A stretch of 64,000 nucleotides of DNA. Origin: Dipteris shenzhenensis (taxonomy: Eukaryota). The DNA lies in assembly GCA_047967505.1 (NCBI GenBank), contig CM106538.1; one strand, written 5' to 3'. The translations under genes were made by a program, and so were the position numbers. Below are positions 3,411-32,980 of this stretch, one piece after another; within the stretch, counting starts at the first letter, position 1; the number at the start of each line of letters is the position of its first letter. The notes beneath the pieces are model-generated. The model saw only the letters and a list, made by a program, of their open reading frames with translations. It was not told the DNA's origin and made no database searches.

Positions 3411-4025
3411 TTGCAATTTTGTTTTTTCCCATGTTTTGGGTTTTCCTTCCGTGTGAATTTTTGGGTCAGACCACTGCGCATGCCTTCCTTGCTTGCAAAA
3501 CTTTGCGATCTCGCAAGCACGACCAGCCTAGCTTCTCAAGCTGTGCAAAAAAAATGGACACCCTCCCAAACCGTTTCTCAAACGACCTGCAACCCGACCC
3601 TACCCTTCGAGGTCGCATGGCCTTTCAACACTAACATCCTCAGATGCTTGGTTCTTTATCCAACACTCAATTTTCTAGTGTTGCTAGACACGATAGAACA
3701 ACACGTTGCGTGTGGTATGGACAACTTCCAAGAAAATCTTGATGGCCTCCAAGCCCTGGCAAAAAGAAACGAAGAGGTTGCAGGAGGTAGAGAGTCCATC
3801 GCCGCACTATTCAAAAACTCATCATGCGCGTGCCCTATGGCCATCAACTGTTTGAAAATTTTCCATGAGAAGTTTGGTGATTGTTTCAAGCTACTTGTAC
3901 TTACCAGCTCTGGAACCTATGATACTATCAACGTTGGAAACACAGGTTGTGGGAAAACCCATTTATTGTTGTTGGACGAGACAAGTAGCCCCAGCAAAAT
4001 TGTTCCGTTGCTTGGTCAAGAGTAA
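3411..4025 (+). CDS. Unassigned 204-aa ORF directly upstream of the Helitron-like Rep region; possibly a degenerate OTU-like domain of the same element
   Basis: Open frame on the same strand as the Rep fragment. The C-terminus (CLKIFHEKF..FKLLVL....YDTINVG.....HLLLL......IVPL) loosely resembles an OTU tail, but no GDGNC catalytic motif is visible. Confidence 0.25.
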   Translation: MQFCFFPCFGFSFRVNFWVRPLRMPSLLAKLCDLASTTSLASQAVQKKWTPSQTVSQTTCNPTLPFEVAWPFNTNILRCLVLYPTLNFLVLLDTIEQHVACGMDNFQENLDGLQALAKRNEEVAGGRESIAALFKNSSCACPMAINCLKIFHEKFGDCFKLLVLTSSGTYDTINVGNTGCGKTHLLLLDETSSPSKIVPLLGQE

Positions 4026-4149
4026 AAAAGAGCGTACAAAACGTGGACAGCGGAAGATGAGCAAAGACTACTTGTGCTAATGTTTGCAAACCCCAACAAG
4101 CCTGCAAGACAGATTGCATCGTTGTTCCAAAACAAGCTACCCCCCGAGA

Positions 4150-5353
4150 AGCACAACACAAAGAGTATCCATAGAAAAATTTATAGGATTCACTCAAGGC
4201 TTGCCGAAGGTGCCCGTGCAATGAACCCATGAAACCATTTGCAACAAACAAGGCGCAAAAGCATTTTCTATAGAAAATTAAAGACACACCTTCCTTTGAG
4301 TTTGCTTGTTGCGGATGCTTAACCTTCAAGTCCAAAACAAAGCTTGCTAAGGACAAACACGAGACATTCATGAAAGAACATGAACTATGCTTGGAACACA
4401 TGTCCATCAAAGACCAGCACATATGTACCCTATGCTATGATCATATCAACAAAGGACTTCATCCCAAATTTTCATGCCACGGCATGCCATTATCCAGAGA
4501 GACAAAATATACTGCTTCCTTAAATAAGCAACAGGTCTCAGGCAGAATACCATTTGCACAAATTTGGGAATCGACATATGAAGGCCAGCTTGGGTTGCAT
4601 GGCAGCATTGTAAATGTGTTCGTGAATACTAACAGAGCACAAACTCTGTTGCCACGGTTCATAGATGACAGCGCTACAGTGGTGGTTGTGACAAAGCGAT
4701 GCTTGCAATATAGCCACTACTACGTTAGTGGGTTGGTGCGCCCCACAGCAACAATGCATGCACTACAAGAACTATTAAGCACTCCTTTGTACAAGGAAAA
4801 CAACGTCAGGGTCAACACACTATGGAATCAGCATATTGTGAACCTTCAAAACAATGAAATCTTGAACAATCGATCATTCGAAGAAACATGTGGCAATGTT
4901 GAAGAGGAGGAAAGATGCACAGACACTTTGGTGCATGGGATTTACACAAGCCAGCAAGTTGTCGACTTCGAAGACAAGCCAATTGTAGAGGCTCCATCAG
5001 AAGGATTTAGGCCCCTCAGCCTCTTCTACGATGAGTATTGCGAAGAGCTAGGCTTCCCTACTCTATTTTACGGCCAAAAAAGACCATACAACAAAATGTT
5101 GGAACGAGCTTACCAAGACATTGTAAAGTGGGAAATAAGACACAAAGATCGATGGTTTGCTTTTAACAGAGAAAACCTATTCTTCAAGTGCATCAAAGTG
5201 CTGATCCGGCAGGTTCTTTCGTCAAGTTGGGTGCGAATGAGGAAAGCAAAACTGCAAGGAACAAATTTGGATGCACAATTTGCAGTCGAGGACACTAATA
5301 TCAAAAGTCGGATGCAATCAAGGATAGGAGACAGGGACTTTGTTTGCTTATGA
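4150..5353 (+). mobile_element. Helitron2/Helentron-type Rep-helicase N-terminal fragment, 3'-truncated
   Basis: The ORF 4370-5353 and upstream frame give FACCGCLTFK, ICTLC...PKFS, RIPFAQI..GQLGLHGSIVNV, LLPR..D...V..KR.LQY.H.Y....VRP, APSEG.RPLSLF.D..CEELGFPTLFYG and YQDIVKWEIRHKD..F....NLFFK. This is the motif series preceding the HUH Rep core in Helentron-like proteins. No HUH core or Pif1 helicase follows. Confidence 0.75.
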
Positions 5354-5391
5354 ACATCAGCGGGGGCACAAATACGTAAAAAAAAAAAAAT

Positions 5392-5421
5392 GTATATATA
5401 TCTATACCTTCAGAAACCCTA
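5392..5421 (+). promoter_or_regulatory. Putative core promoter of the PPR gene: TATA-like run and telo-box AAACCCTA
   Basis: gTATATATAtc at about 5392-5402 and AAACCCTA at 5414-5421, 36-65 bp upstream of the ATG at 5457. Confidence 0.35.
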
Positions 5422-5456
5422 CAAAAAATGTGCCGAGGGGGGAAGTGAGAGCGAAG

Positions 5457-7217
5457 ATGGCAAAGACTCGGCATCCCGAAGTTCACCGCTTGGCCTCCAT
5501 CCTCGCCAGCCACCAGCGATGGACTCCCACCTTGGCGTCCGCCCTCACCCCTCTCGCCCCCCTCCTCACCCCCTCTTTGCTCTCCTCCCTCCTCACCACC
5601 TCCCACATCGCTCGCCCCCTCGCCTCCTGCCTCTCCCATTGGGCCTCCCTCCAAACCCACTTCTCTCATTCCGCCGCAAATGAGCCCCACGCTGTCTGGC
5701 TTCTCCTCCATTCCTTGAAAAAGGCCCGAGTCCACCCTCCTCCCCGATTCTTCGCCTCCCTGGTCGCGATCTTCGGAAGGGTTGGCATGGTCGGAGACGC
5801 GGAGAAGGTATTCTTGTCCATGAAGGATTTCCACTGCCAGCCCGATGTGTTTGTTTACAACGCACTCTTGAATGCCCTCCTCCATATCAAGGTGAAGAGA
5901 ATCAGCGAAGCTATGGCATTGTTGGAGCAAATGGCCTCCACGGGCTGCCAGCCACACACCATAAATTATAATACAGTCATATCTGGCCTGCACAAGGCAG
6001 GCCGAGGCCACATGGCTCTCTTTACATTCTCTCGAATGATGGAGCAGGGCTGCAGTCCCGACACTGGGACTTTCAATATCTTCATCGATTGGTTTGGGAA
6101 GGAGGGAAAGATAGATGAAGCTCTCGAATTGTTCGAGATAATGACAGCTATGGGGTGCCTTCCAAACACTAGTACTTATAACACAATCATATACGTTTTG
6201 CTGAGGGCAGGCCGAGGTGACGTAGCCCTCTCCACGTTCACACGAATGATGGAGGAGCGCTGCAGTCCGGACACTCGCACTTGCAATACTCTCCTCGCTT
6301 GGCTAGGCAACGAGCGAAAGACAAATGAAGCTCTCCAACTGTTCGAGACAATGACCGCTATGGGATGTCAGCCGAACACAGTGACTTATAACACAGTAAT
6401 ATCTGGCCTGCTCAAGGCAGGCCGGGGCCACATGGCTCTCTCCTTATTCTCTCGAATGATGAAGAAGAGGTACAGTCCTGATACTTGGACTTTCAATACT
6501 CTGATAGCTTGGTTTGGCAAGAATGGAAAGACCCATGAAGCTCTCGAACTACTAGAGAAGATGACCTCAATGGGGTGCCTGCCAGACACAGTGACTTTTA
6601 ATACAGTCATCTCTGGTCTGCTCAAGGCAGGCCAAGGCAACATGGCCCTCTCCTTGTTCACTCGAATGATGGAGAAGGGGTACAGTCCGAATACTGTGAC
6701 TTTCAATACTCTCATCGCTTGGCTGGGCAAGAAAGGAGAGACCTATCAAGCTCTCGAACTGCTCCAGAAGATGACCGCAATAGGGTGTGTGCCAGACACA
6801 GTGACTTTTAACACGGTCATTGCTGGCCTGCTCAAGGCGGGCCGAGGCAACATGGCCCTCTCCTTGTTCGCTCAAATGATGGAGAAGGGGTGCAGTCCAG
6901 ATACAGTGACTTTCAATATCCTCATCGCTTGGCTGGGCAAGGAAGGAAAGACCCATGAAGCTCTTGAACTGCTCCAGAAGATGACCTCAATGGGGTGCTT
7001 GCCAGACACTGTGACTTATAATAGTTTCATATCTGGCCTGCTGAAGGCAGGCCAAGGCAGGAAGGCTCTCTCCACGTTCACTCGAATGATGGAGGAGGGT
7101 TGCAGTCCAGACTCTGTGACTTTGAATAGTTGGCTTGGCAATAACGGAAAGACAGATGAAGTGGGGTGCCTGCCAGATGCTCTCATTGATTGGCTTGGCA
7201 AAAGGAAAGAAAAATGA
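5457..7217 (+). CDS. P-class pentatricopeptide repeat (PPR) protein, about 13 motifs, intronless
   Basis: Open frame with ATG at 5457. It has an Ala/Ser/Leu/Arg-rich N-terminus, then consecutive 35-aa motifs (TVTFNTVISGLLKAG..MALSLF.RMMEKGCSPD / TVTFNTLIAWLGK.GKT.EALELL.KMT.MGCLPD). No E or DYW domain. Confidence 0.93.
   Translation: MAKTRHPEVHRLASILASHQRWTPTLASALTPLAPLLTPSLLSSLLTTSHIARPLASCLSHWASLQTHFSHSAANEPHAVWLLLHSLKKARVHPPPRFFASLVAIFGRVGMVGDAEKVFLSMKDFHCQPDVFVYNALLNALLHIKVKRISEAMALLEQMASTGCQPHTINYNTVISGLHKAGRGHMALFTFSRMMEQGCSPDTGTFNIFIDWFGKEGKIDEALELFEIMTAMGCLPNTSTYNTIIYVLLRAGRGDVALSTFTRMMEERCSPDTRTCNTLLAWLGNERKTNEALQLFETMTAMGCQPNTVTYNTVISGLLKAGRGHMALSLFSRMMKKRYSPDTWTFNTLIAWFGKNGKTHEALELLEKMTSMGCLPDTVTFNTVISGLLKAGQGNMALSLFTRMMEKGYSPNTVTFNTLIAWLGKKGETYQALELLQKMTAIGCVPDTVTFNTVIAGLLKAGRGNMALSLFAQMMEKGCSPDTVTFNILIAWLGKEGKTHEALELLQKMTSMGCLPDTVTYNSFISGLLKAGQGRKALSTFTRMMEEGCSPDSVTLNSWLGNNGKTDEVGCLPDALIDWLGKRKEK
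5960..7130 (+). repeat. Tandem 210-nt (two-PPR-motif) units, about 6 copies
   Basis: The anchor ..aggc(a/g)ggcc.agg..acatggc recurs at 5991, 6201, 6411, 6621, 6831 and 7041, an exact 210-nt spacing. Confidence 0.92.
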
Positions 7218-12482: not shown

Positions 12483-15400
12483 AACACACTAGGGCCTAGG
12501 ACAATTGTCGGGCTGGACCCCCAGAAGGTTTTTATTCATGAAGAGAGGATTCGAATACATAGTTTAGCGTAGAGTTGTCTGTTACAAATTTCAAACGTGA
12601 ATCCATTTTACAAGAGCTTCAAGCTCAATCCAAAATGGCAACATGCCACTTGTAAATTATCTGGACTAAATCCTATTACATGTCTCTAAGGGCAATTTCT
12701 GGGGTCTTCGTAGCACTTGGTCACGCGGGTGGCCTTCAAAATGCTTGCTACTCTCCAAATTGCTTGGGTCTTTAGCCCCTCATAGTACCTGTAACAATTA
12801 GTTAAAGCGCACCACCATGGCCCCCATTAATTGTTAGTGCTTTTTCATGCAAATAATAGACTGTGGACTAATCCTAGTCATGGTGGGCGTCCCCATTGAA
12901 CACGTGTGAACAAAATATAGAACACAATTTTTGGTCGATCAAAGTCAACCCTCTTGGTTGTAATTAGGGGCTTGATCATCAGTCAGAGCGCCTTAATTAT
13001 GGCCAAGTCTCTCCAACCAAAGTCAACGCACCTTGGTTAACGAGGTTAACCCTCTTGGCGTGAGCCAAGTCTTGTTGATCAAAGTCAACACTCTTTGATC
13101 GTAGTGAGCTCTATGGTTCTCTTATTAACCGCAGTTAATCCTCTTGGTAATGAACTAAGTCTCCTCGATCGAAATTAGGCTTACTTGACCAGAGTCAAGT
13201 ATCTTTGACCGTAGTTAATTCTTTGATCATTAAAAGAACTCTTTTGACCATAATTAACCTAGATGGAAAACTCTTTAATTATGATCAAATAAATGTTCAA
13301 TTGAACTTTGACTTAGGATATTTACATTGTGGTGACATCCCCTCGGCTTTTATTCAGTTGACCTTAAGTGAAAAGCTTCCTTGTAAGCATCCAAAAGCTG
13401 TGGATGATTGGACAACATGTATCATCCATCCACTTGGCGTCCAATGCCATATAGTTCTTGAATTTTACAAGATACTTGTAAAACTCCTTGCCCTGAGGGC
13501 CTTTGCGTATAGTACGGTACACAATCTGCTATTGCAACATGTTTTAAAAATGATTTGGTCTTGGAATTAAAACACTATATTATCGAGAGAAATTGTGAGT
13601 GCTTCCTTACTATATTGGTTAAAGAACCTCCTCTAGATCCATCCACTTCTGGTGGATCCTCTACTATTGGCTCTGTAGGCTTTGGCTTGTGGAATTTCTT
13701 TAGAAGACTCACATGGAAAGCATTGTGAATCCTCCAATGCGCTGGCAATGCCAACTTGTATGCAACCTCATTTATTCCTTCTGTAATCCTGAAAGGGCCA
13801 TAGTACTTGGGAGATAACTTTGCATACACTTTTTGCTTGCCTTTAAACTTGCGGAGCCTAGCTTTCTTGAACTTCAAAAGTACCCAATCCCCTTCTGATT
13901 AGTTGCAAATATTTTATCTTTGGTCCTTAGGATAGGTGGCAGAATCACCTTCCCATAGATGACCTCAAAGGGGGCTTTGCTTGTAGAGTTGTGAATTGTA
14001 TTATTGTAAGCAAACTCTACCAATGGTAGGTACTTTTTCCAGTTTGAACCTTGGTCACCCACATAGCATTTCAGCATATCCAATGCTGTAGAATTTGCTA
14101 CTTCACTTTGACCATCTGTCTAGGGATGGAAAGAATTCAGATTCGTCCCTATGTTATCAAATAAAGCTCTCCAGAATAGAGTGGTCATTCTGGGATCTTG
14201 ATCACTGACAATGGACTTAGGCATACCATGGTGCTTAAAGACCTGTGCCATGAAAAGCTTAGCCATATGATCTGCCTTTATGGTTTTACGAATCGGAATG
14301 AAATGAGCTTGCTTGCTGAATCTATCAATGATAGTCCAAATCCCATCATTCCTTGACTTCAATCTTGGCAAATAAAAAATGAAGTCCATTGCAATACTCT
14401 CTCATGGTGCCTGAGGCACGGGAAGAGGCATAAGTAAGCCAGGTGCCTTTCGTATATCATACTTCACTTTCTGATAAAAAGATCTAACTGAAAATACGTT
14501 TGTTGAATGAGAACAAGTGAATGTTGACATAAACGTATTTGGCAGGATGCTCTCTTTACGTCATAAATATGCGAAGCTTTAGAAGATGCATTTACAATAG
14601 CTTTACTTTTTCCCCATCCATTCTACAAGGGCAAGCAAGCAAAACCACCAAGGGAGGTGTCCGCAACCATGATATTGTAAATTTGTTAAGTGGATTAAAG
14701 AATGCAATTTCTTGATTTCTTCGAAAAGGAACATAAAAACGAAACAATATAAGGTATTCAGTAACAAACTGATGTATATCTTTCTGCATCCCTGGCCAAA
14801 AGTAATACCTCTCTAGTGCTTGAGTTATTGTTGTAATTCCCCTATGCCCAGCATAGGGAGGTGCATGGCATTCTTCCAAAATCTTTATCCTCATCTCTTG
14901 GGTGATGCATAGGCAGTCATCTTTCATTAGATACTCATCTTTTAGGGAATAGTGACTAGTGGACTGCCCCTCTTGCATTTGCTGTAAAATCTCACCAAAA
15001 TATGCATCATTAGTATATTGCTCCCTCGTGTCTTCTAGGTCTTGATGATAAGCAATAGTCACATTGTTGACCTGGGGTCTTCGGGACAAGGCATCTGCCA
15101 CTGTGTTTCGAACTCCTAGAGTACGGACAATCTTAAAATGGTATATTGATAGCATGTTTGCCCATTTCATATGCTTCTTGAAAAGCTTTGTCTGAGTAAA
15201 AAAGTATCTCAGACTTTGATGATCTGTTTTGAAATATGCACCCAAAAGATAATGCTTCCATGTATGGATGGCATGAATTACGGCCAATAACTCTTTCTCA
15301 TAGATTTCCAAATATCTCTTTGCATCTCGGAGTCTCTTGCTCTCATAGGCCACTACATGACCATTCTGATGCAACGCAGCCCCAACACATTCCCCACAAG

Positions 15401-18400
15401 CATCACAATCCACATCAAATGGCTGATACAAATCTGGAACTATTAAGATTGGCTCTATGGTTAGCCTCTCTTTGAGTGTGGTGAAGGCTTTCTTCTGAGG
15501 AATTTCCCATCTGAAAGCTGCATTTTTCTTAGTAAGATCGTGGAGTGGAGATATCTGCAAAATGCCAGATACATCTTCGGTAGTAAGAACACAGGCCTAG
15601 GAAACTTCGAACTTCATGCACAGTTTTTAGCTCTAGCCATTCTTGAATGGCTCGGATCTTTGCCGGATCCATCCGTATCCCATCTTTGGATATTATATGC
15701 CCCAAGTAATGGATCTCTTATAGAAAGAATTCACTTTTCTTGCTGTTTGCATAGAGCTGATGATTTCTTAGCTCTTGAAACACTGTAGCAAGATGTTCCT
15801 TGTGCTCTTCTTCGGACTTAGAAAAGACAATTATGTCATTGAAGAAGGTACCAATGAACTGTCTGTACGGTCGGAAGATCCGATCCATCATCTTATTGAA
15901 TGTAGATGGGGCATTAGTCAACCCAAAAGGCATCACCCGATACTCATATAACCCAAAAGTAGTGCGGAACGCTATCTTGTGCACATCCTAAGGTTGTATC
16001 CTCACTTGGTGATAGCCACTCCTTAACTCTATCCTGTTGAAAACTGAAGCTCCATTTAACTGATCCAACACATCATCAATGCGCGGAATAGGGAATCTAT
16101 TCTTGATGGTCATTTTGTTCAGTGCGCGCGGTAATCGATGCACATACAGAATGAGCCATCTTTCTTCTATACTAGCAGTACATGGGAACAAAAAGGAGAA
16201 GAACTGGGTTGAATTAGCCCCTTGGACAACAAGTCCTGCACCTGAGTCATAATCTCCTCTTGCTGAGTCGCACTAACTTTGTATGGGGGTCTATTGGGTG
16301 GCTCATTGCTAGGAATGAGTTTTATGCCATGATCCTCAAGTCTCTTAGGGCTAACTCCCTTGGCAAAGCGTTGAAATTTATTCTGATCTATCTCACTTAT
16401 TTTAGCATGCATTTCCACATCTCTCTCTTTTACAAAAAGCATGTAAGGTGAAACTACAGACTTTATTTCTTTTCCAATAGAACTATTTGATACAATGGGA
16501 ATAGTTTCCTCTCTATTCCTAGCAACCACACGATGTACTTTGCCCCTATGTATAAACTCTAGCACTCTTTCAGGAAGAGTTAACCTTACTGCCTTGCGAT
16601 GGAACCAAGGCATACCCAAGACTACATCATGATGTTTTAGTGGAGAAATGAAGAAGTCTTCCTGATCCACATAACTCTGTACATGAAGATGGAGCTTCCC
16701 TATCAAGGGAGTGACTGTCACAGGGTTCCCACAGAACATCTGGTCGGCATCCAGAGCCCTGTCCAACTCCTCCGTCTTTATTCCCATCCTCAGAGCGATA
16801 TCCTCTGATATAAAGTTAGCAGTAGCCCTTGGATCAAATAAAATCAGCGCTTGCTGGTCTCTGACTTTGCCCCATGATAGCAGCAATTCTCATTCCTCTG
16901 GGTTTGAAACATGACCCAATATGTCAGGAGTTCCTCCTGCCGTTGGCTTGTGTGGTCCTTGTGGCTTCTTTGCCTCTTTTCCCTTCGGGGTTGAAGGCTT
17001 TTTTGGGCACTCAGCAGCCACATACCCCTCTTTGCTGCATCTGAAGCATTTATCCTCTTTCTTGAAAGTTTCAATCTATTTAGGGGTCAACTGTGGTCTT
17101 ACCTTATAGGGCCTTTGTATCTAGTTTCCCCTCAGCTTATGAGGATAAAAGCCCCTCTTCTGAGCCTTAGGAAACTCTCTTATTTCAAACTTGGGGGGGG
17201 TCACTGACTTTTTATCCCTCGGTAACCCTGCCTATAGTGAAGGCACACTAGTAGGATCTTGCATGTATATGAGACTAGCCACATTGGCTGAATGCATAAG
17301 ATCTGATATTTCTTTAATATCTTTAGTGTTTACTTGGGCCTGTATCTTTGGAGTGAGTCCGGCCCAGTACTTCCTGAGTTGTCTTGTCAGAAATTTTCTT
17401 GAAAGGTGAAACCTTTAAGTATGCGTCCCAAAATTTCTGGTTGTAAGACTCAACTATATCTTGTGCTTCCATATGAATGCTCTCCCAACCAAGAAGGACA
17501 TGATACCGAAACAGTTTGGGAATAAACTATTTATAGTAAGCTTTCTTAAAGTCCTTCCATTTCTCAGGGGCTACATAGTTGGCTGTTTTAGCTATCCACC
17601 ATGCATTGGATGTACTAGTCAAGTGTAAACCAACCATACGAAGCTTTGAGGACTCACAGAAATTTTCCAGGCTGAAGGCAGCATCAAACTACCTTATGAA
17701 CTGCATTGCCTTTTCAGTTGGCCATACTGGCCATTGTAAGTGGCAAATCTTACTGACTTCCCACTGTCTTTGAATTCTTTAGTCTCTGCCTTCCTGCTGG
17801 ACTTCTTCTTCTTCTTCTTCTTTGGCTTTGAAGATCCAGAAGAAGGAGATGATGTTGATGAATTGGATGAACTATGATGATGCTTCGTCTTTTTCTTCTT
17901 GGGAAGAGGATCTTCTCTTTTCCTCTTTTTACCCACCACCACTTCTTCCTGATCTTCTCCAGAGGGAGACTTCTTTGGCTTTTCCTCAAAAAGAGGTTGT
18001 ACCATCTTGCGAAACAAGGGATCACTTGTTGCCTCTCCTATTGCATAATCAACTCTCTGTAGGGCATTCTCTTTATAAATATGTATAGCCTCAGCCTGCT
18101 ATACCTGGTTAGATTCTACCATTCGCTCATGGGATGATTGGGCATGTTGCTATGAAGCCATCTCTACAACTTGTCTGAGATCTACAACTCTCACACACTG
18201 TGTATGCAACTGATGCAATCAGCCTTTGCTTTTCAAAGAGAAAAATACCTCAGCAAGAGGTGTCTTGCATTCACAACTTGTGCTAGTGCTGGGCTGTTAA
18301 CTCAACGCATAAACTCAAAGCGGTGTGCCCCTTTTCTGGCTATTGCAAATGACATTCAAAAAAAGCATCTCTTTTCCCCTTTTTCACTACTCAAAGGCAT

Positions 18401-18849
18401 GCATATTCTTTTTCTGCAAATCTCTGATTTTATTGTGTTTCTGCTGCTTTTCTGATAGTAAAAGTCTAACAGGTAGGTGGAAAACTGATGGCAGAAATTG
18501 TCTCTATAACTTATTTTTTCTTTTTTTGGGACAATAACTGGATGAGTAACCGGTTGCTTACACTAACCAAACTAACTTTCTCTAGTCTGGTTAGGTGAGC
18601 AAGCCAATTAGTCTGTAATTGAACCTCTAACCAAAGTAACTAAATTGGTCACAATTTGGTTACTCTAACCAGACTGGTCTAGTTACTCTAACAAGATTGG
18701 TTTGGTTTGGTTAGGCTAATTGGACCTCTAACCAAACTGGACATTTTAACCCAGTTCACTAACCAAGGTTAGGTTAGTTGTGTGTCAGTGCCACATCATC
18801 TCACGCATGTACTGCCACATCAACGTCTCCTAGCCATCTTGCATTTCTA

Positions 18850-19245
18850 CATACATGAAGGTGCAAAATATGGAATGGGTCAATAGAATTTGCATGTCCA
18901 TGTGTTGGATTGCACTCAAACTTTGCACAGGAATTAAACCCTATGGCCTCCATGTTCTTCCAAAGTTTTAGTTGCATATGACACTGAATGTCAGCCCTGG
19001 GAGGTGAAACGACCCATTATCACCCTATGCACCTTGTTACATATGTGAAGGTGCAAAATATGGTATGGGTCAGTAGGATTTGCATGTCCACTTGTTAGAT
19101 TGGACTCAAAATTTGCACAGGACTTAAAATCTATGGTCTCCATGTTCTCTTAAAGTTTGAGTCCCATTTTACACCAAAGGTATGCACTGGGAGGTGAAGG
19201 GGCCAATTTTCACCCTGTGTGCCTCGTTGTGCCTATGCGAAGGTT
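18850..19245. repeat. Two diverged tandem copies of a 190-bp unit in the Gypsy leader region
   Basis: tgaaggtgcaaaatatgg at 18856 and 19046, with colinear similarity across the unit. Confidence 0.85.
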
Positions 19246-23467: not shown

Positions 23468-24846
23468 TGTGAAGAGAGTGGGAGAGAAGGAGTCTCACTT
23501 GCAGCTTTCTCACATACACAATGGGGGAATACACACAAAGGTGGAGGCTGAAAACAATTTTCCTTTTCTTAGTTGTGAAAGCCAAAAGAACTCTCTCTAA
23601 GTAAAAAAGGAATAGGTGAACCCTATATGTGGGTCTCAAACCAAACTCAGCTAACCTAGGTGGCATACTAACTGAGCCACTAACTAGAGTACATAAAGAT
23701 AGCTGTCATCTAGCTATTATTCATGGGCGGTGTACCAACTACATCTGCAGCTTAACAAGTCGGTGACATAAATGCACAATGGTCACCCTCGCATATCATG
23801 AGTGGAGCTCGATATCTCAACACTCCCCCTCGAGCTCAATCCCAATTCCTACACACCAAGCAGGTCTTTGAACTTGCGCAGCTTCTTTGCACCCAATGCC
23901 TTCGTGAATATGTTAGCTACTTGATCCTCTGTGGTGACATAAACTAGATCAATAAAACCTACTCAAACCTTCTCCCACACATAGTGATAATGCACCTCAA
24001 TGTGCTTTGTTCTAGCATGATAGATTGGGTTATTTGCTAAGGGTATACTCCTCATGTTGTCATAATAAATGACAACCGGCCCATCTGTAGATTGATGCAT
24101 ATCATAAAGTAGCTTATGCAACCAAGCTACCTCACATGTAGCCATTGCTGTACCCCTGTACTCAGCCTCTGTGCTCAACAAGGCAAGTGTAGGTTGTTTC
24201 TTGCTGCTCCAAGTGACTGTAGCACTCCCAAAAGAGAACATATATCCATTGGTAGATTGTCTATCAGAAATACTACCAGGCCAATCAGCATTAGTGTATC
24301 CATGCAACTGTATCTGAACCCCAGTCTCATAAAATAGTCCATACTGCAATGTGGACTTCACATAACTCAGTATGCGTCTAGCCGCATCCAAATGCAGTTT
24401 CCTTGGAGCCTGCATAAACTAACCTACCAACCCAATAGCATAGCTCAAATCTGGCCTGGTAATAGTCATATAAATCAAACTTCCTACTATGCGTTTGTAC
24501 ATAGTAGGATCTTCCAGAAGCTCACCTGCATCTATGCTCAACTTCACATTCTGCTCCAAAGGAATTGAAATAGGCTTACAGCATGTCATCCCATATTTGG
24601 GCTGCATGTCCAATCCATACTGCCTTTGTAAGAGCCATATCCCACTTGTGGATCTAATCACCTCAATGCCCAAGAAGTAATGCAGCTCTCCCAAATCCTT
24701 CATATCAAACTTTTACTTCAATAGCATTTTCACACATTGAACGATATCTTCATCACTATCACCTATGATGATCAAATCATCAACATAAATGACAAGCAAC
24801 ATAATGCCTTTCTCTATTTTTCTCACATAAAGTGAGAGATCTGCCT
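23468..24846 (-). mobile_element. Older Ty1/Copia element, 3' part (RT C-terminus, RNase H, PPT, 3' LTR)
   Basis: VIYVDDLII (about 24780), MKDLGELHYFLGIEV, WSSKKQPTLALLSTEAEY and HARTKHIEVHYH. The PPT complement ctccccct at 23823-23830 lies next to the LTR end ...tctcaaca at 23822. The left LTR boundary is uncertain. Confidence 0.88.
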
Positions 24847-25103
24847 TGTTGAGAGTTCACGCTCAACATCATGTGATCATGTGTGCATAGCACCATCACG
24901 TGATCATATGTGCATAGCACTAACCTTATAGAGTGCTATAAAGGAAAGGGTTAGATCCCCTAACCCTAACCCTAAAAGGGTTTGTATATATTCTATTTTT
25001 TCAACTAATTCTAGTGTACAGTTAGTCATTTGTGGTGTGCTCTCTAGCTGTGCCCTCTCTCCTCATCTCCACTCTTCTCCTCTCCCCTCTTCATATTTTG
25101 TCA
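24847..25103 (+). repeat. 5' LTR (257 bp) of the intact Copia
   Basis: TGTTGAGAG...TTTTGTCA; no difference from the 3' LTR found on manual comparison. Confidence 0.97.
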
Positions 25104-25115
25104 TGGTATCAGAGC
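25104..25115 (+). promoter_or_regulatory. Primer-binding site (initiator tRNA-Met)
   Basis: TGGTATCAGAGC immediately after the 5' LTR. Confidence 0.97.
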
Positions 25116-25579
25116 TCCCTTGTCTTCCGTTGAGACGTTGAGATTCTTGAGAGTGTGAGAGAGATTGTGAGATTTGAGAGTTTTTTCTTGAGTGATCTTC
25201 TCTTCCGTTGAGAGAAACTTCTGTTCACTTGAGAGATTATTCCGTTCATTGTGAGATTTCATTCATCAGAGATTTCCGTTTGTTTGAAAGAACATCTGTT
25301 CTTTCCATTGTGATTTGAGAGTGAGAGAGGTGTTTTCTTCTTTAGAAGAGTTCTTTGTAAGGTTCATTTCGAGATCTCTGAGAGAGAGATAGGTGGGAGG
25401 ATCCATCCAAACGTGCACTCCCAGCTCTCGGGCTTCTTCAAAGGCTACTACAGGTGCAACTACTCCATCGACATCTAAGGCCCTCCGGTGATTAGGAGCT
25501 TCGATGTGGCTGGCTGACCACCGGCTCCTACGCTACCTGCGCTCCAGACCACTTCACAAAGCAGCTCTTCATCAACAGA

Positions 25580-25644
25580 GAGCCTGCACGCGGGCTAGTG
25601 AAGCCTGCTCCCTGGCAGAGACCTCCACGTTTCTCTTCTCCAGA
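25580..25644 (-). pseudogene. Short captured fragment resembling a FRIGIDA-like protein coiled-coil
   Basis: The minus strand reads [20 protein letters not shown] with GC-ending codons. As recalled, it resembles the LEKR.A.V.AKEQASLERLQ segment of FRIGIDA-like 3 proteins. The segment is short, so the call is tentative. Confidence 0.45.
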
Positions 25645-26043
25645 GCGGCACCAGATCTCCTGACGCTATAATCGTGCCCCGCAATGGCAGCATAGGAGTC
25701 ATCTTCGCGTTGAGGAGCTTTTCGATAGTTTCCAGAATCTCCCATCTGATCCCAGAGTAGCCCTGCAGCAAGGTATTTGTCCTCACGAGCACAGCAGCTC
25801 TCGCGGCCTCCACAAGCAAAACATTGCCTTCTTTCTTGCCAAAGATACCAGCGTTGAGGAAGCGAATGAGCTCCTTCTGAAGCTGCACTCCCTGCGAAGT
25901 TCTGCGATGGGAGGTAGCCCCATAGCCAGTCGTCGTGAACCCACAAGGAGCTCTCGTCCACCCGCGCTTTGGCAGCTTCAGCGTCAAGGGTGACGGTAAC
26001 GTCCTTCCGGCGGACAACAGCAGTGACCTGGGCGACGGTCACC
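25643..26043 (-). pseudogene. PAL: Captured phenylalanine ammonia-lyase gene fragment, antisense to the retrotransposon, with an internal deletion/frameshift
   Basis: [34 protein letters not shown] [shift] [32 protein letters not shown]...[53 protein letters not shown]. These are unmistakable PAL motifs, including the MIO-forming ASG at 25658-25666. Confidence 0.95.
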
Positions 26044-26184
26044 TCTCCAAGCAGCCATCAAATGCACGATCTCCGCCAGAGCTCACGGGCTCCCTCGTCA
26101 CATAGCGCCATCGCATCGTCGACGGAAATGAGGACGGAATCTACAAAGATTCTGTCAGAATCTTGAAAATTCGGTGGCCCTCCT

Positions 26185-26580
26185 TTTGACACGTGGCAGT
26201 TATCCCCAACCTTATCTACCCAGGGTCACCACACACACAGGTGTGGTCAAGGATCAGCCACGTGGCACCCTTATCCACTGTGCCACGTCATCTATGCCAC
26301 ATCATCTACCACGTCATCAGGCCATGTCATCTGTGCCATGTCATCTGCCACATCATCAGGCCACGTCACCTTTTCCACGTCAGCTGCCACGTCACCTCTG
26401 CCACGTCAGCTGCCACGTCACCTCTGCCATGTCAGCTACCACGTCACCTTTTCCACGTCAGCTACCACGTCACCTCTGCCACGTCAGCTACCATGTCATC
26501 ACTGCCATGTCAGCTGCCACGTCATCACTGCCACGTCAGCACTGCCACATCATCTGGCCACGTCATCAGTGACACCTCAG
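26185..26580. repeat. Short-unit array of CCACGTCA/CCATGTCA motifs (G-box/ABRE/hex-like)
   Basis: About 14 CCACGTCA copies in 11-14-bp units, plus GACACGTGGC at 26188 and palindromic GCCACGTGGC at 26257. Confidence 0.88.
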
Positions 26581-27530
26581 CAGTCCAGTCAGCACTGACC
26601 CCTGCAGGCACAGTCCCTTGCCAGGCACACTGTGCACACACAGCATGTGCACACTCCTGCCACCTCAGCACAGAGCTTCACTGGCACACCTCTTGCTAAG
26701 CACAGTGCCACATCATCACTGCATGTGACTCACAGTGACACATCATCATTGAGCACCATTTGCACTCCTTTTGCCCCTCCACCTAGATCAAGTCATATCT
26801 CTTGATCCAGGAAGAATTTGAGGGTGCTCCAAAAAGGAAAGTCGCTCGATTTTTTGTGCTCTACGCGCTCGTTACATCAGGCGCACATTTCGGCGCAAGT
26901 TACACTCACATTTGAGCTTCGCCGACAAAACCACTTCCTTCACGCACATTTGCCTCTACATCGACGCATCTGACCCAGCACTTAAAAAGAACAAAGGAAA
27001 AGGAATTATTTGCTGCTCTTTCATCGATCGACGGTTGGTTTAGATCTAGATCAGAGTAGACTAGATCGCCATAGAGGGGACGCTTTGAATTCCCCAAGTT
27101 GCCAATCTAAACCATGCCCGAAATTCCCGACTAGTACCTACTCGGAGTCAGTCCATACGCTCACATCCGATTTCACATCATTACATTACCTGAAACCTTA
27201 CGTTCATCAGTTCAGTGAGCAGACTTCAGAGTTCAGAGGCATTGCAGATTGATTCAGTGGGCAGATAGCACTTGATTTCACACACACATGCCACCATTGT
27301 AAAGCCTATTTGGCTATCTCACGGCATCGTGCACATCATTTTTCAGCCTTGTAAAGCCTCTTGGCTATTCCCGGCATCATTGCCACAAGCCTTGTAACAC
27401 AGGTCAGATCTTATTTACTGCAGTTCTATCTTCACCGACGGTACAGAGATTTCACTTGGCATCTTCAGTGTATTTGCAGTTGATTCATACAGAGTTTTCT
27501 AGGACACTTTTTGAGTACATTGTTTGCACC

Positions 27531-30500
27531 ATGTCGACTAGCAACCTCAATCTGGAGGCATCTGCTAAGTTAGACAACTCCAATTACGGTACATGGAAAT
27601 ACCGAATGGAGACCATTCTTGTGCTTCAGGACAAATGGGAGTATGTTGATGGATCCATACCTAGACCATTGGCCGATCCAGCCACCAGTAGCTCTACTCC
27701 ATCTGTTGTCACAGCACCAGCAACGGGATCTACATCAGGATCTACATCTACACAAACAGTTTTCGCACCAGTAGCAGATCCTGCCATTGCCCGAGCTCAA
27801 GCAAAATGGGATAAGAAAGACAAGTATGCCTATCACCTGATCAAGCAGAATGTGCAAGATGTCATGCTAGGACAGCTCAACACAGTCAAGACATCAAAAG
27901 AAGCATGGGATATGTTCGCAGCTCTCTATGAGTCCAAGAACACATCCAGGATTCTCACCTTGAGAAACCAGATCAACCAGAGTTTCCGCAATAGCAATGA
28001 AACTGGTCATGCTTATGTACTCCGCATCAAAGACTACAACAATCAACTTGCAGCAGCAGGAGAGACTATGAATCCCGCAGAAATGGTTCAAGTAATCCTG
28101 AATGGACTAGGAGAAGGATATGAGAATCTGGTCCAGAGTATTGCCATCCAACGGCAAATTCCAACACTTGAAGAACTTCAGTCAGTTCTACTTGGTGAAG
28201 AACTCAGGACTCAAGCCATTCAAGCACGTAAAGGTCATTCTAATGATCAGGCATTCACCGCTTCAGACAGAAGCAGAGGCAAAGGCAGAAACAGAGGTAG
28301 ATCATATCAGAAAAGTGGTCAAAATCAAAGTCAGAATCAGCATCAGCATCAGCAGCATCCTCAGCAACATCAAAATCAGCAAAGAGGAAATCATTCCAAC
28401 CGAGGAAGATTCCAAGGACGAGGGAATGCATCCACCAATGTGTCAAACATTCAATGCAACTATTGTCACAAGTTTGGACACTATGAAAGAGATTGCCGCA
28501 AGAAGCAGTATAACCAAAGCGGTCAATCCAGTAGTAATCGAGGGAATTCCCGAGGAAGAGGAAATCATCGTGGTGGACATTCTAGTCACAGTCATTTTGC
28601 AAATGAACATGGCAATATGTTTCTTGCAAGTGAGGAATTGCATCAGACTGATACAATGCACCAAGACACTGATTTCAATCCCAAAGAGGATTTCAGCTAT
28701 CAAGTCGACCAAGTGGAACAGGATCCTTGGTACATCGACAGCGGTGCATCATCTCATATGACAAATCATCAGGAATGGTTCACAGAAATGAAGCCATTAG
28801 AAGGTCAAAAGAATGTCATCTATACAGCAGACAATACACCGAATCCGGTTCAAGGGACAGGTGTTATCCCTATGAACAATTTCACTGGTACAAAAGGATT
28901 AGTCAAAGATGTGCTCTATGTTCCGAAGCTCAGCAAGAACCTTTTGTCAGTAGGTCAAATGACGGAACACAACTACAAAGTCATCTTCGACGGTGATGAA
29001 TGCACTATCAGAGACAAATCCAAAAGAGGTCAGCTAGTAGCAAAAGGTGTCAAGGAAGGACGCTTATACAGGATGCTAGCTACAGTACCAGATAAGCATG
29101 CCATGTCCGCTCAAATGCAACAGATGCCACTATCTGCAAAATGGCACAAGAGATATGGTCATGTCAACTTCAAGTACTTGTTAGATCTAAGGAATCAGAA
29201 TATGGCAATTGGGATTCCAAAGCTACAGTTTCTTGGAAAGGTTTGTGAAGCATGCTGCTTCGGCAAACAAAAGCGAACCAACTTTGTCAGAAGTACCTCT
29301 CGTGCACGAGGTATTCTTGATTTAATTCATACAGATGTATGGGGTTATGCCCAGACCCGCAGCATCAATGGTTCACTTTATTACTTGACCTTCATCGACG
29401 ACTACAGTAGATATTGTTGGGTCTACTTTCTGAAAGAGAAATCTGAAGTGTTTGCCAGATTTCAAGAATTCAAAGCCATGGTAGAAAACCAAACAGGCAG
29501 AAAGATTAAGGTCATGAGATCAGACAGAGGAGGTGAATACATGTCTTCAGCCTTCATGAACTTTTGCAAAAATCACGGCATTCGAAGACAATTCACATGT
29601 GCAGATACTCCTCAGCAAAATGCAATAGCTGAAAGGAAGAATGGGACTTTAGCAGACAGTGCTAGAGCAATGCTTAGTGAAAAGCATCTTCCGAATCAGT
29701 ATTGGGCAGAAGCAATAGCTACAGCTAACTACTTGCTTAATCGGCTTCCTACCGAACCGATACAAGGTATGACTCCTTATGAAGCATTCACTGGACACAA
29801 GCCACGCATTGGGCATCTCCGCATATTTGGTTGCATAGCATATGCCCACATACATGATGATCATCGCAGGAAATTGGATGCGAAGTCACGCAAATGCATC
29901 ATGGTAGGCTACAGTGAAGAAAGTAAAGCATACAAATTGTATGATCCCATCAACCGCAAAGTCATTATCTCCAGAGATGTAATCTTCGATGAGGAATCAG
30001 AATGGAAAACCTCACCTACACAGGAGATAGAAGCATCGACTTCACAGTCATCTACAGAAAAGGTTGATGAAGAAGAGCAAGAATTGCCAACAACACCCCA
30101 ATCAGCATCACAGCAGCTCAGACGGTCTACTAGGGAAAGCAGACCACCAGCCAGATTGACATATGCTCAGAAAGGCAAAGCAATTCAGGTGGAAACCACC
30201 AACTATGCTCTTATGACTACCATCATGGCTACAGAAGAGCCAGTGTACTTCGAAGACGCAGTAGATAAGCCAGAATGGCAAACTGCTATGAATGAAGAAA
30301 TGGATGCTTTGTATAAAAACAACACTTGGGAATTATGCGACCTTCCACCAGGAAAGAAGGCCATAGCCAACAAATGGGTATACAAAGTGAAGTACAATCC
30401 AGATGGCAGTATTCAAAGATACAAAGCCAGATTAGTTGCAAAAGGATTTGCACAACAATATGGTCAAGATTATGATGAGACTTATGCTCCAGTAGCAAAG

Positions 30501-31787
30501 ATGGATTCCATACGGTTCTTGATATCACTAGCGACACTCAGTACATGGAATGTGTATCAGCTCGATGTCAAGAATGCATTTCTCAATGGTTATCTAGACG
30601 AGGAAGTCTACATGCAACAACCAGCCGGTTATGTTGAACCAGGACAGGAGAACAAGGTTTGCCATCTCAAGAAAAGTCTCTATGGCTTAAAGCAAGCACC
30701 CAGAAGTTGGTACAGCAGAATTGACAAGTATTTTGCTGATCTGGGATACATGAAGTCCAATGCAGATCATACTCTCTACTACAAAGTTCAAGGGGAAGAT
30801 ATTACTATTGCACTTTTGTACGTAGATGATCTGATTGTGACAGGAAGCAAGGATAGCTTCATCAGAAAGTTAAAACAAGACTTATCTGCAGAGTTCGACA
30901 TGAAAGATCTTGGACTTATGCACTATTGTCTTGGAATTGAGTTCTGGAGAGATTCAGATAGCACATTCATGAGTCAGCTCAAATATGTTGACAGTCTCCT
31001 GAAGAAGTTTCATATGGCAGATTGCAAGATTGCTGCCACTCCCATGGAACAGAGTTTGAAACTTACTAAAGATTCAGAAAAGCCTACAGTCAATGACAGA
31101 TACTACAGGCAACTCATTGGATCTCTTATATATCTGACACTCACACGGCCAGATATTTGTTATGCAGTAAGCTCACTAGCACAGTTTATGGCAAATCCAA
31201 AACAGTCTCACTGGAATGCAGCCAAAAGAGTCTTGAGATACATCAGAGGTACAAGACAATTTGGGATAGAATACAGAGGAAGTCATCCACGGTTGCATGG
31301 ATACTGTGACAGTGACTATGCTGGAGATCATGAGACCAGGAGATCGACACAGGGATATGCATTTTTCCTTGGTCAAGGTGCTATATCATGGTTGTCAAAC
31401 AAACAGCCAACTGTTTCTTTGTCTTCGACTGAAGCAGAATATAGGGCACTCACTACAGGTGCATGTGAGGCTATATGGCTCAGAAGACTATTGTCAGAAA
31501 CAGATTACTTTGATGAGTCAAAGCCAACAACAATATACTGTGATAATCAATCGGCTCAAGCATTGGCTAAAAATCCAGTATATCACTCCAGGACAAAGCA
31601 CATTGATGTCAGAGAGCACTTCATCAGAGAAAGAGTGTTACTTGGTGACATCACACTGCAGCATTGTGATAGCAAAGAAAATGTTGCAGACATCTTTACC
31701 AAACCACTCGGTAAAGAGCTATTCGAGAAACACCGACTAGCTCTTGGTTTGATGCAGAGGAAGGACATTCCCATTAAAGGGGTGTGA
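27531..31787 (+). CDS. Copia gag-pol polyprotein (gag, CCHC knuckle, protease, GAG-pre-integrase, integrase, RT, RNase H), uninterrupted
   Basis: The first ATG is at 27531. Motifs: CNYCHKFGHYERDC, WYIDSGASSHM, WHKRYGH/CEAC, HTDVWG..RSDRGGEY..AERKN, YVDDL and DSDYAGD..TEAEY..ADIFTK, in Copia order PR-IN-RT-RH. Confidence 0.97.
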   Translation: MSTSNLNLEASAKLDNSNYGTWKYRMETILVLQDKWEYVDGSIPRPLADPATSSSTPSVVTAPATGSTSGSTSTQTVFAPVADPAIARAQAKWDKKDKYAYHLIKQNVQDVMLGQLNTVKTSKEAWDMFAALYESKNTSRILTLRNQINQSFRNSNETGHAYVLRIKDYNNQLAAAGETMNPAEMVQVILNGLGEGYENLVQSIAIQRQIPTLEELQSVLLGEELRTQAIQARKGHSNDQAFTASDRSRGKGRNRGRSYQKSGQNQSQNQHQHQQHPQQHQNQQRGNHSNRGRFQGRGNASTNVSNIQCNYCHKFGHYERDCRKKQYNQSGQSSSNRGNSRGRGNHRGGHSSHSHFANEHGNMFLASEELHQTDTMHQDTDFNPKEDFSYQVDQVEQDPWYIDSGASSHMTNHQEWFTEMKPLEGQKNVIYTADNTPNPVQGTGVIPMNNFTGTKGLVKDVLYVPKLSKNLLSVGQMTEHNYKVIFDGDECTIRDKSKRGQLVAKGVKEGRLYRMLATVPDKHAMSAQMQQMPLSAKWHKRYGHVNFKYLLDLRNQNMAIGIPKLQFLGKVCEACCFGKQKRTNFVRSTSRARGILDLIHTDVWGYAQTRSINGSLYYLTFIDDYSRYCWVYFLKEKSEVFARFQEFKAMVENQTGRKIKVMRSDRGGEYMSSAFMNFCKNHGIRRQFTCADTPQQNAIAERKNGTLADSARAMLSEKHLPNQYWAEAIATANYLLNRLPTEPIQGMTPYEAFTGHKPRIGHLRIFGCIAYAHIHDDHRRKLDAKSRKCIMVGYSEESKAYKLYDPINRKVIISRDVIFDEESEWKTSPTQEIEASTSQSSTEKVDEEEQELPTTPQSASQQLRRSTRESRPPARLTYAQKGKAIQVETTNYALMTTIMATEEPVYFEDAVDKPEWQTAMNEEMDALYKNNTWELCDLPPGKKAIANKWVYKVKYNPDGSIQRYKARLVAKGFAQQYGQDYDETYAPVAKMDSIRFLISLATLSTWNVYQLDVKNAFLNGYLDEEVYMQQPAGYVEPGQENKVCHLKKSLYGLKQAPRSWYSRIDKYFADLGYMKSNADHTLYYKVQGEDITIALLYVDDLIVTGSKDSFIRKLKQDLSAEFDMKDLGLMHYCLGIEFWRDSDSTFMSQLKYVDSLLKKFHMADCKIAATPMEQSLKLTKDSEKPTVNDRYYRQLIGSLIYLTLTRPDICYAVSSLAQFMANPKQSHWNAAKRVLRYIRGTRQFGIEYRGSHPRLHGYCDSDYAGDHETRRSTQGYAFFLGQGAISWLSNKQPTVSLSSTEAEYRALTTGACEAIWLRRLLSETDYFDESKPTTIYCDNQSAQALAKNPVYHSRTKHIDVREHFIRERVLLGDITLQHCDSKENVADIFTKPLGKELFEKHRLALGLMQRKDIPIKGV

Positions 31788-31861
31788 TGGAATGTAATGC
31801 TCAGTCCTTCTTCGATTCCCCAGAATCATCATCTTGAGGGAAGGCCTACTTCATGATGTTG

Positions 31862-31875
31862 ATCTTGAGGGAAGG
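31862..31875 (+). promoter_or_regulatory. Polypurine tract (a second copy lies at 31831-31844)
   Basis: atcttGAGGGAAGG abutting the 3' LTR. Confidence 0.9.
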
Positions 31876-32132
31876 TGTTGAGAGTTCACGCTCAACATCA
31901 TGTGATCATGTGTGCATAGCACCATCACGTGATCATATGTGCATAGCACTAACCTTATAGAGTGCTATAAAGGAAAGGGTTAGATCCCCTAACCCTAACC
32001 CTAAAAGGGTTTGTATATATTCTATTTTTTCAACTAATTCTAGTGTACAGTTAGTCATTTGTGGTGTGCTCTCTAGCTGTGCCCTCTCTCCTCATCTCCA
32101 CTCTTCTCCTCTCCCCTCTTCATATTTTGTCA
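31876..32132 (+). repeat. 3' LTR (257 bp) of the intact Copia
   Basis: Matches 24847-25103 and is followed by the TSD TGCCT. Confidence 0.97.
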
Positions 32133-32980
32133 TGCCTTGGAAATCTGAAACCCAATAGTGACAAGATACTGTCCTATCTTGTCAGACCATGGTCTGGGTG
32201 CTTGCTTCAAGCTATAGAAGGCTTTCTTCAACCTGCAAACAAACTCAGGATGAACAGCATGCACATAACCTAGTGGCTGCTCCATATAGAGCTCTTCTTG
32301 CAAATCACCATGCAAGAAGGCATTCTTTACATCCATCTGATGTAAAGACCATCCCTTTGATGCAACCATAGCAATGACTGCTCTTACAGTTGCCATCCTT
32401 GCAACCGAACTGAATGTTTCTTCATAATCAATGCCATATGTCTGTGCATACCCCTTGACAACTAATCTTGCCTTGTATCTATTCACAGAACCATCTGCAT
32501 TGTGCTTCACCTTATAAACCCACTTGCAGCCAATTGCATTCTTGTCTTTAGGCAAAGGCACCATTTCCCATGTAGCATTTGTCTCGAAGGCATCCATTTA
32601 TTCATCCATGGCTTTCTCCCATTTTTCTTTTCCCATGGCTTGCTCAAAAGAAGTGGGTTCTGGTTCATGTATCACTTTGACCATATAGGCATAGTGAATG
32701 GCTGTAAATCCATCATATTTCAGCATATCCACAGGATACTTAACTCTGGTAGACCTATGCAAAATAGGCTCACTACCAAGTGCTCTCAAAACATCCCTTG
32801 TGTTCCTTACTCCAGGTGTAACAATAGAAGGAATACCCAACTCATCATGAAGGCTCTGTTTTGAGCCACTGGATTCACCATCCACATAAGAGCGAGCTGC
32901 ATTCACATCAAACATGGGCTGATCTACTTTCTCTTTTCCTTTTTGTGATACTTGCATACCACTATCTGCATTGCTAGGTC
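32133..32980 (-). mobile_element. Older Copia element, RT N-terminal part (continuation of 23468-24846)
   Basis: AIGCKWVYKVK..RYKARLVVKGY.Q..GIDY.ETF and QMDVKNAFLHG. Removing the insert and one TSD joins FQISKA to DLSLYVRK in frame. Confidence 0.92.

Follow-up and report, generated by a model that had tools for sequence, protein, structure and literature searches.

The maize retroelement Bs1 is not known to have a pol of its own. It is described as an LTR retroelement in which parts of three unlinked host genes are found, each of them incomplete (PMC13317346, PMC5131818). In the same literature its pieces are reported to form a transcribed and translated chimeric open reading frame (PMC13317346), and the element is treated as acting like a non-autonomous one (PMC5131818). 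A more general route, LTR-mediated retroposition, was set out by Tan et al. in 2016, in whose account partial mRNA copies lie inside LTR retrotransposons, 25 of 29 junctions show microsimilarity (with a median of 6 bp), and "de novo sequences" of 2-26 bp are mentioned (PMC5131818). Some of the chimeras described there have at least two parents, one of them combining four genes with an Alu, and work on yeast Ty elements is cited (PMC5131818). Transduced sequences are said to be usually in sense (PMC7264820). In maize, a survey reported 425 intact LTR retrotransposons with gene fragments, among them 36 Copia elements, and under its conditions no element with more than one gene was found (PMC2774510). 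Intact LTR retrotransposons, Copia elements among them, commonly hold gene fragments, and genome-wide captures are reported for maize, rice, sorghum, gymnosperms, and pteridophytes (PMC2774510, PMC13477047), and a capture survey of 23 species includes pteridophytes (PMC13477047). It was also proposed in 2021, as the "epigenetic conflict" hypothesis, that silencing a capturing element would hit the donor gene as well, and a study of gymnosperms, as cited in the same source, saw no methylation advantage for capturing transposable elements (PMC13477047).

Here we analysed a 64-kb stretch of the genome of the fern Dipteris shenzhenensis (the window), which contains a Ty1/copia retrotransposon on the plus strand at 24847-32132. 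The 5' leader of this element holds a patchwork in which two short spacers accompany at least two host-derived pieces that are unrelated to each other; a third such piece is probable. The patchwork is about 700 bp long (25375-26076), it is non-coding, and it lies about 270 nt behind the primer-binding site.

The Copia element and its leader

The Copia element is recently inserted and structurally intact: its LTRs are identical, it is flanked by a TGCCT duplication, and its open frame holds all Copia domains. The 5' LTR (24847-25103, plus strand) is 257 bp long, has the ends TG...CA, and shows 100% identity with the 3' LTR (31876-32132, plus strand, also 257 bp). The left copy of the target-site duplication stands at 24842-24846, and the same 5 nt adjoin the 3' LTR at 32133-32137. 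Directly 3' of the 5' LTR we read the primer-binding site TGGTATCAGAGC (25104-25115, plus strand), which we take to be of the tRNA-Met type; the LTR end and this site are covered by many contigs of related ferns. The polypurine tract GAGGGAAGG (31867-31875, plus strand) lies directly 5' of the 3' LTR. The gag-pol polyprotein (27531-31787, plus strand) is uninterrupted, in a frame of 1494 open codons that extends from 27303 to 31787 and has its first in-frame ATG at about 27531. Its Pfam domains follow in the order Retrotran_gag_2, Pol_BBD, gag_pre-integrs, rve, SH3_retrovirus, and RVT_2. The integrase is thus upstream of the reverse transcriptase in one polyprotein frame, which is the Copia order, and a protease barrel lies between gag and integrase. 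All features by which a Ty1/copia element is recognized (TG...CA LTRs, 5-bp duplication, primer-binding site, polypurine tract, and the order gag-PR-INT-RT) are present. Neither the element nor any part of the block recurs within the 64-kb window, and the polyprotein used as a query against viral contigs gave 0 relatives.

The leader is 2427 nt long (25104-27530). Its first part (25116-25374, plus strand) is AT-rich, with a GC content of 0.38, and contains degenerate TTGAGAG-type repeats and short repeat families. The part that remains behind the patchwork (26077-27530, plus strand) includes a tandem array at 26281-26569 with periods of about 13, 26, and 40 nt and 14 copies of CCACGTCA. All 14 copies of this motif in the 64-kb window fall inside the array, and its ACGT core presumably resembles binding sites of plant bZIP factors. 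There are 16 ATG triplets in the leader ahead of the polyprotein start, which raises the question of how gag gets translated from the full-length RNA. Elsewhere in the window, a 190-nt unit is present in two tandem copies (18848-19227) that are 81% alike, and other open frames of 231 to 629 codons are found at 3330-7217, 14592-16889 (minus strand), 48873-49688, 60597-61310, and 63235-63999. The latter may belong to other mobile elements or to genes.

To place the leader among those of relatives, contigs of four public runs (X1 to X4) from related ferns were compared with 25000-26280. The runs were chosen as sharing 15-29% of the block's sampled words; they come from three studies, and the organisms are coded A, A, B, and C. 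The RNA or DNA labels of the runs are guesses, and the contigs are unstranded. All statements on contigs hold among the listed pieces and loose ends, with 83 pieces and 54 loose ends standing outside the list. In all four runs, many contigs follow the leader to 25172-25174 and then differ from it. One contig of X2 joins 25115 directly to 26124, so that 1008 nt are skipped, and one contig of X4 joins 25129 to 26077, with 947 nt skipped; each joint is a single contig with 30 letters on its shorter side. These two contigs hint that relatives may lack the block and that the sequence from 26077 or 26124 onward could be ordinary family leader. The first-pass annotation had pointed to 25505-25575 and 26045-26135 as further GC-rich pieces of the mosaic. 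Both stretches are GC-rich, but the sequence from 26077 onward resembles family leader. If the leader begins again at 26077 or 26124, the right part of 26045-26135 would not be a host fragment, and its junction with PBS-proximal leader in the relatives that skip the block is what the first-pass annotation had named as grounds against such a piece.

The limits of the block also bear on whether a nested non-autonomous DNA transposon (a Pack-MULE, a Pack-CACTA, or a Helitron) had gathered the fragments first and then inserted into the leader. Pack-type elements and Helitrons are described as the best-known carriers of multi-gene mosaics (PMC2774510, PMC13317346). However, neither terminal inverted repeats nor a duplication bracket 25375-26123 or 25116-26123. 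Inverted pairs of 10-20 nt with 70-100% complementarity are present and none lies at the block ends; a direct 11-mer near both ends is at the level of chance, as its score is also attained in 37 of 500 shuffles. The stretch that relatives skip has the ends TC..AC and TT..GC, which are not Helitron ends. With such borders we regard an origin from a nested transposon as highly implausible.

The pieces of the patchwork

The GC content of the block at 25390-26140 is 0.52-0.63, compared to 0.38-0.47 in the flanks, which agrees with the GC-rich block of about 750 bp seen in the first-pass annotation. The same annotation described the block as CpG-retaining. This is true for the PAL piece, with an observed/expected ratio of 0.83, and for 26040-26123 (1.20), but not for 25375-25649 (0.52-0.60); the adjoining leader has ratios of 0.70 and 0.41.

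The PAL fragment lies on the minus strand at 25642-26039, antisense to the element, and corresponds to about codons 74-218, including the Ala-Ser-Gly motif. Three PAL contigs fit 25642-25934 plus 25936-26039: one of 2456 nt (depth 666) with 6 mismatches in 397 nt, one of 2685 nt (depth 71) with 4, and one of 2304 nt (depth 91) with 7. This amounts to about 99% identity with full-length PAL contigs. Just 2 of the listed sites set the PAL copy apart from all four runs, with 22 rows standing outside the list. The limits given by the contigs are 25642 and 26039, and those given by tblastn with 8 of 8 PAL proteins are 25643 and 26042. The tblastn matches fall into two segments in different frames, 25933-25643 and 26042-25917/25938, of which the first is 81-89% identical to the PAL proteins along 97 residues; for P0009 the match extends to 113 residues, at 75%. 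Pfam recognizes Lyase_aromatic in the PAL piece with an E value of 2.5e-25. In a protein search that gave 1744 proteins at E<=0.001 among 4729 candidates, the nearest relatives of the fragment were a Logan protein (88% identity) and proteins of Ceratopteris richardii (83%) and Adiantum nelumboides (82%). By these nearest relatives, the host is a fern.

At the boundary of the two segments, base 25935 of the element replaces 36 nt of the donor, a net loss of 35 nt that shifts the frame; read by eye, the 36 donor nt encode the PAL residues NKIMKGCDVYGV. This replacement is a second small rearrangement, inside the captured PAL fragment itself. Also within the fragment, 41 nt at 25848-25888 are matched by contigs of 576-588 nt that differ on both sides, and these contigs are probably PAL paralogues or related lyases with a common conserved stretch.

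Past 25642 and 26039 the PAL contigs are unlike the element and, as read by eye, continue the PAL frame (...SYLAGLLTGR and ...IEGKTL). Because the contigs continue as PAL while the element does not, the PAL piece ends sharply, and its flanks are not degraded PAL. An impression by eye that PAL runs on into the flanks was rejected, as 25642 and 26039 are the exact points at which the PAL contigs part from the element. When five PALs from ferns and other sources were aligned to 25380-25648 (minus strand) with frameshifts allowed, scores were 28-37, with shuffle means of 25.7-27.3. Only one of the five, P0005, was above its null (37, against a maximum of 32 in 30 shuffles), and Pfam showed no lyase in the flank frames.

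The PAL fragment adjoins piece B, a 67-nt fragment of expressed host sequence at 25583-25649. The minus-strand reading LEKRNVEV..., to which the first-pass annotation had drawn attention, is present and sits on this piece, which is matched by separate contigs. A 1055-nt contig of X1 (depth 84) and a 733-nt contig of X2 (depth 32) have 2 mismatches each in piece B and diverge from the element on both sides of it. Among the listed rows, X1, X3, and X4 share the same loose ends at both 25583 and 25649. Read by eye, these ends leave the minus frame of piece B open over 42 codons, whose composition is coiled-coil-like; the plus strand, too, has one open frame across the piece. It is probable that piece B is antisense to gag-pol, its minus-strand assignment being inferred by eye from the loose ends. 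A FRIGIDA-like origin, which had been proposed for the LEKRNVEV... reading, found no backing: no Pfam family was obtained at E<=10 (P0001), and when the frame, at 40 aa, was compared by shared words with 5.8 billion proteins, 66 candidates came up, none of them at E<=10. With a 22-residue reading as a weak query, this is best taken as an absence of support and not as an exclusion. The same reading had been said to join PAL through a 2-nt CT overlap. The overlap is in fact 8 nt: the fitted ranges of the donors of piece B and PAL share AGAGCGGC at 25642-25649, a microhomology with a chance probability of about 4^-8. This B/PAL junction is the one that could be judged for microhomology, as the other five junctions have one side without a donor.

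Piece A, a probably foreign segment at 25375-25524, matches the interior of one 630-nt X3 contig (depth 8.9). It corresponds to positions 276-436 of that contig with 8 mismatches (about 95% identity), and the contig carries an 11-nt insertion behind 25405 relative to piece A. On neither side of piece A does the contig match the leader of the element, and the first 16 nt of the piece resemble the element's own GA-rich leader repeats. Among the listed pieces, the other three of the four runs do not cover it. The plus-strand reading ...IHPNVHSQLSGFFKGYYRCNYSIDI* of the first-pass annotation is present here and has a G+C content of 0.80-0.83 at third codon positions. The underlying 3-base periodicity (25390-25480) has this G+C content at one codon phase and 0.37-0.40 at the other two, and the positions of the GC-rich phase are mostly C, as read by eye. 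A minus-strand ORF at 25266-25532 is open across the whole of piece A, and the periodicity would suit the G-starting codons of this ORF and the plus frame equally well. In a protein search the plus ORF gave 2 candidates, none at E<=10, and Pfam had no match for piece A in either frame. The minus ORF had a sole match among 1.84 billion representatives, P0124, which was rejected as an ORF through a tandem repeat. P0124 has 823 aa with a repeat of about 57 residues, and it matches in 8 stretches with 35% identity at about 25350-25445 (minus frame); this resemblance to a translated satellite probably arose by chance.

Two spacers complete the patchwork. One is 58 nt long (25525-25582) and has no other copy in the window; the other (26040-26076) has 37 nt and is CpG-rich. 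Neither is covered by the listed contig pieces, and the same is true of 25301-25343.

Could PAL be the only foreign sequence, with its GC-rich neighbours being ordinary family leader or chance open frames? The flanks had been thought to look coding, and this found no support, as no flank frame has a protein or Pfam match. Pfam applied to 14 translations of the block gave only PAL, with 4 other matches at E values of 0.054-0.18, far below the cut-offs. Such blanks for the flank pieces are weak evidence because the queries are short. The sequence from 26077 or 26124 onward, which in one contig each of the relatives' runs X4 and X2 follows directly on PBS-proximal leader, and the leader-like GA repeats at the beginning of piece A also speak for PAL alone. 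On the other hand, 25583-25649 fits contigs (depths 32-84) whose sequence on either side bears no relation to the element. The PAL contigs and the piece-B contigs are different records (X1, X2), and the contig with piece A is a third one (X3), which matches the neighbouring leader on neither side. We therefore consider it very unlikely that PAL is the only foreign piece. The first-pass annotation had named a lack of host-gene hits for the flanking pieces as grounds against the mosaic; piece B does have such matches, in X1 and X2, and piece A has a match in one of the four runs. That the block is a mosaic and not PAL alone is borne out most directly by piece B, where the matching contigs continue differently on both sides. 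Host-derived sequence that lies between the LTRs thus also exists outside the element, in the PAL and piece-B contigs.

None of the cassette's junctions is spanned by a contig from the four runs, so that the window assembly is their only source. In an exact scan of metagenome contigs, the B/PAL junction was found 0 times and a 33-mer of PAL 0 times. That no independent run bridges the junctions is what one would see if the mosaic had been created during genome assembly. Nevertheless, pieces of 58-398 nt, an 8-nt microhomology, and an internal loss of 35 nt are unlike the misassemblies of long or short reads, and the surrounding element is perfectly regular. An assembly artefact is the least credible of the explanations that we considered.

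Origin of the patchwork

We favour, with a little better than even confidence, the view that the locus is an intact young Copia element whose host patchwork arose through switching of its reverse transcriptase during plus-strand synthesis onto co-packaged RNAs and is now carried as a passenger cassette. The pieces would have been stitched together by microhomology-guided template switching, with cellular RNAs packed in the same particle serving as templates. We place the switching in the synthesis of the plus DNA strand and not of the minus strand because the fragments are antisense, and every piece should then be antisense. The chimeric copy would have kept all its own genes and gone on transposing. 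The PAL reading lies on the minus strand, opposite to that of the element, so that the usual finding of captured sequence in the same sense does not apply here. The antisense PAL also argues against a switch during minus-strand synthesis, as a classical switch onto an mRNA would not give an antisense piece. This orientation favours an origin at the DNA level, or else it needs the less documented plus-strand variant.

The same mosaic could have been made at the DNA level if a break in the leader was mended by microhomology-mediated repair, with filler from several loci, and the element transposed afterwards. An antisense PAL, and probably an antisense piece B, would then need no special pleading, and an 8-nt microhomology suits end joining or replication-type switching as well as it suits a reverse transcriptase. 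The two spacers, which no listed contig covers, could stem from genomic DNA that is not transcribed or could be untemplated filler, and the replacement of 36 nt by 1 nt inside PAL resembles a repair scar. DNA-level template switching and guidance by microhomology are also named among the routes of gene capture in plants (PMC13477047). Against repair stands the fact that both assignable donors are represented by the interior of seemingly transcript-derived contigs, inside reading frames. Moreover, the block lies inside a retroelement, whose replication includes obligatory template switches. Nor did we recognise any intronic or intergenic donor sequence in the pieces, which may weakly count in the same direction. 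We regard repair as a possible origin, although a doubtful one.

Under the favoured plus-strand switching, the cassette most likely does nothing for the element and is a passenger. The only consequence that can be predicted is that transcripts of the element contain about 400 nt complementary to the PAL mRNA. The idea that the cassette is a source of small RNAs follows only from this complementarity. A stronger version would be that the PBS-proximal leader is a hot spot at which plus-strand hops onto mRNAs pile up antisense fragments in succession, with no harm to the element, and that the transcripts act as natural antisense RNA against PAL and the other donors. We think this unlikely. If it were true, earlier stages would be represented by relatives that have a shorter block or none, and small RNAs might dampen the donors, or silencing the element might be costly to the host. 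The latter shield idea, which was part of the first-pass annotation, is the published "epigenetic conflict" hypothesis (PMC13477047).

Because the LTRs are identical, the PAL copy is nearly unchanged, and the element is complete for moving, the example is unusually fresh and the junctions are still readable. The capture route (RNA or DNA, plus or minus strand) could be decided from the host genome alone. A fern genome combined with small-RNA data would allow a clean test of the effect of an antisense leader fragment on its donor, and the donor in this case, PAL, is a key enzyme of phenylpropanoid metabolism. Apart from these uses, the fragments are an ordinary transposon passenger.

Comparison with known capture systems

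Mosaics of this kind had been called better known from Pack-MULEs and Helitrons than from intact Copia elements. Pack-type elements and Helitrons do provide the familiar examples, but that statement overlooks the precedents among LTR retrotransposons, namely, maize Bs1 and the LTR-mediated retrocopies with several parents (PMC13317346, PMC5131818). Multi-gene captures by one LTR retrotransposon are few, consisting of Bs1 and a handful of animal cases. Among the papers listed, a literature search on the capture of PAL by retrotransposons in ferns gave nothing relevant, and neither did one on the positions of introns in fern PAL genes.

The fern block resembles Pack-MULEs, Pack-CACTA elements, and Helitrons in being a mosaic of several short host-gene fragments within a mobile element. 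Those carriers belong to the DNA transposons and are delimited by terminal repeats or by the ends of a Helitron, whereas the fern block has no such ends and is carried by a retroelement. The LTR retrotransposons with gene fragments in the maize survey, none of them with more than one gene (PMC2774510), differ from the fern element, which holds at least two host pieces. Compared to the chimeras of Tan et al., the 8-nt junction and the short spacers of the fern element fit the reported pattern (PMC5131818). In the Drosophila cases presented there, part of the internal ORFs was replaced in all (PMC5131818), whereas the coding part of the fern element is complete. The retrocopies in that study are described as mostly transcribed in sense (PMC5131818), while the PAL fragment of the fern is antisense. 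Bs1 is like the fern element in that several host-gene segments lie in one LTR retrotransposon. The fern element, however, has an intact polyprotein, and its pieces are in the 5' leader, antisense, and form no ORF. This type of capture is therefore rare but already known, and what is unusual in the fern element is that the captured sequence is antisense, that it lies in the leader, and that the element keeps its own genes.
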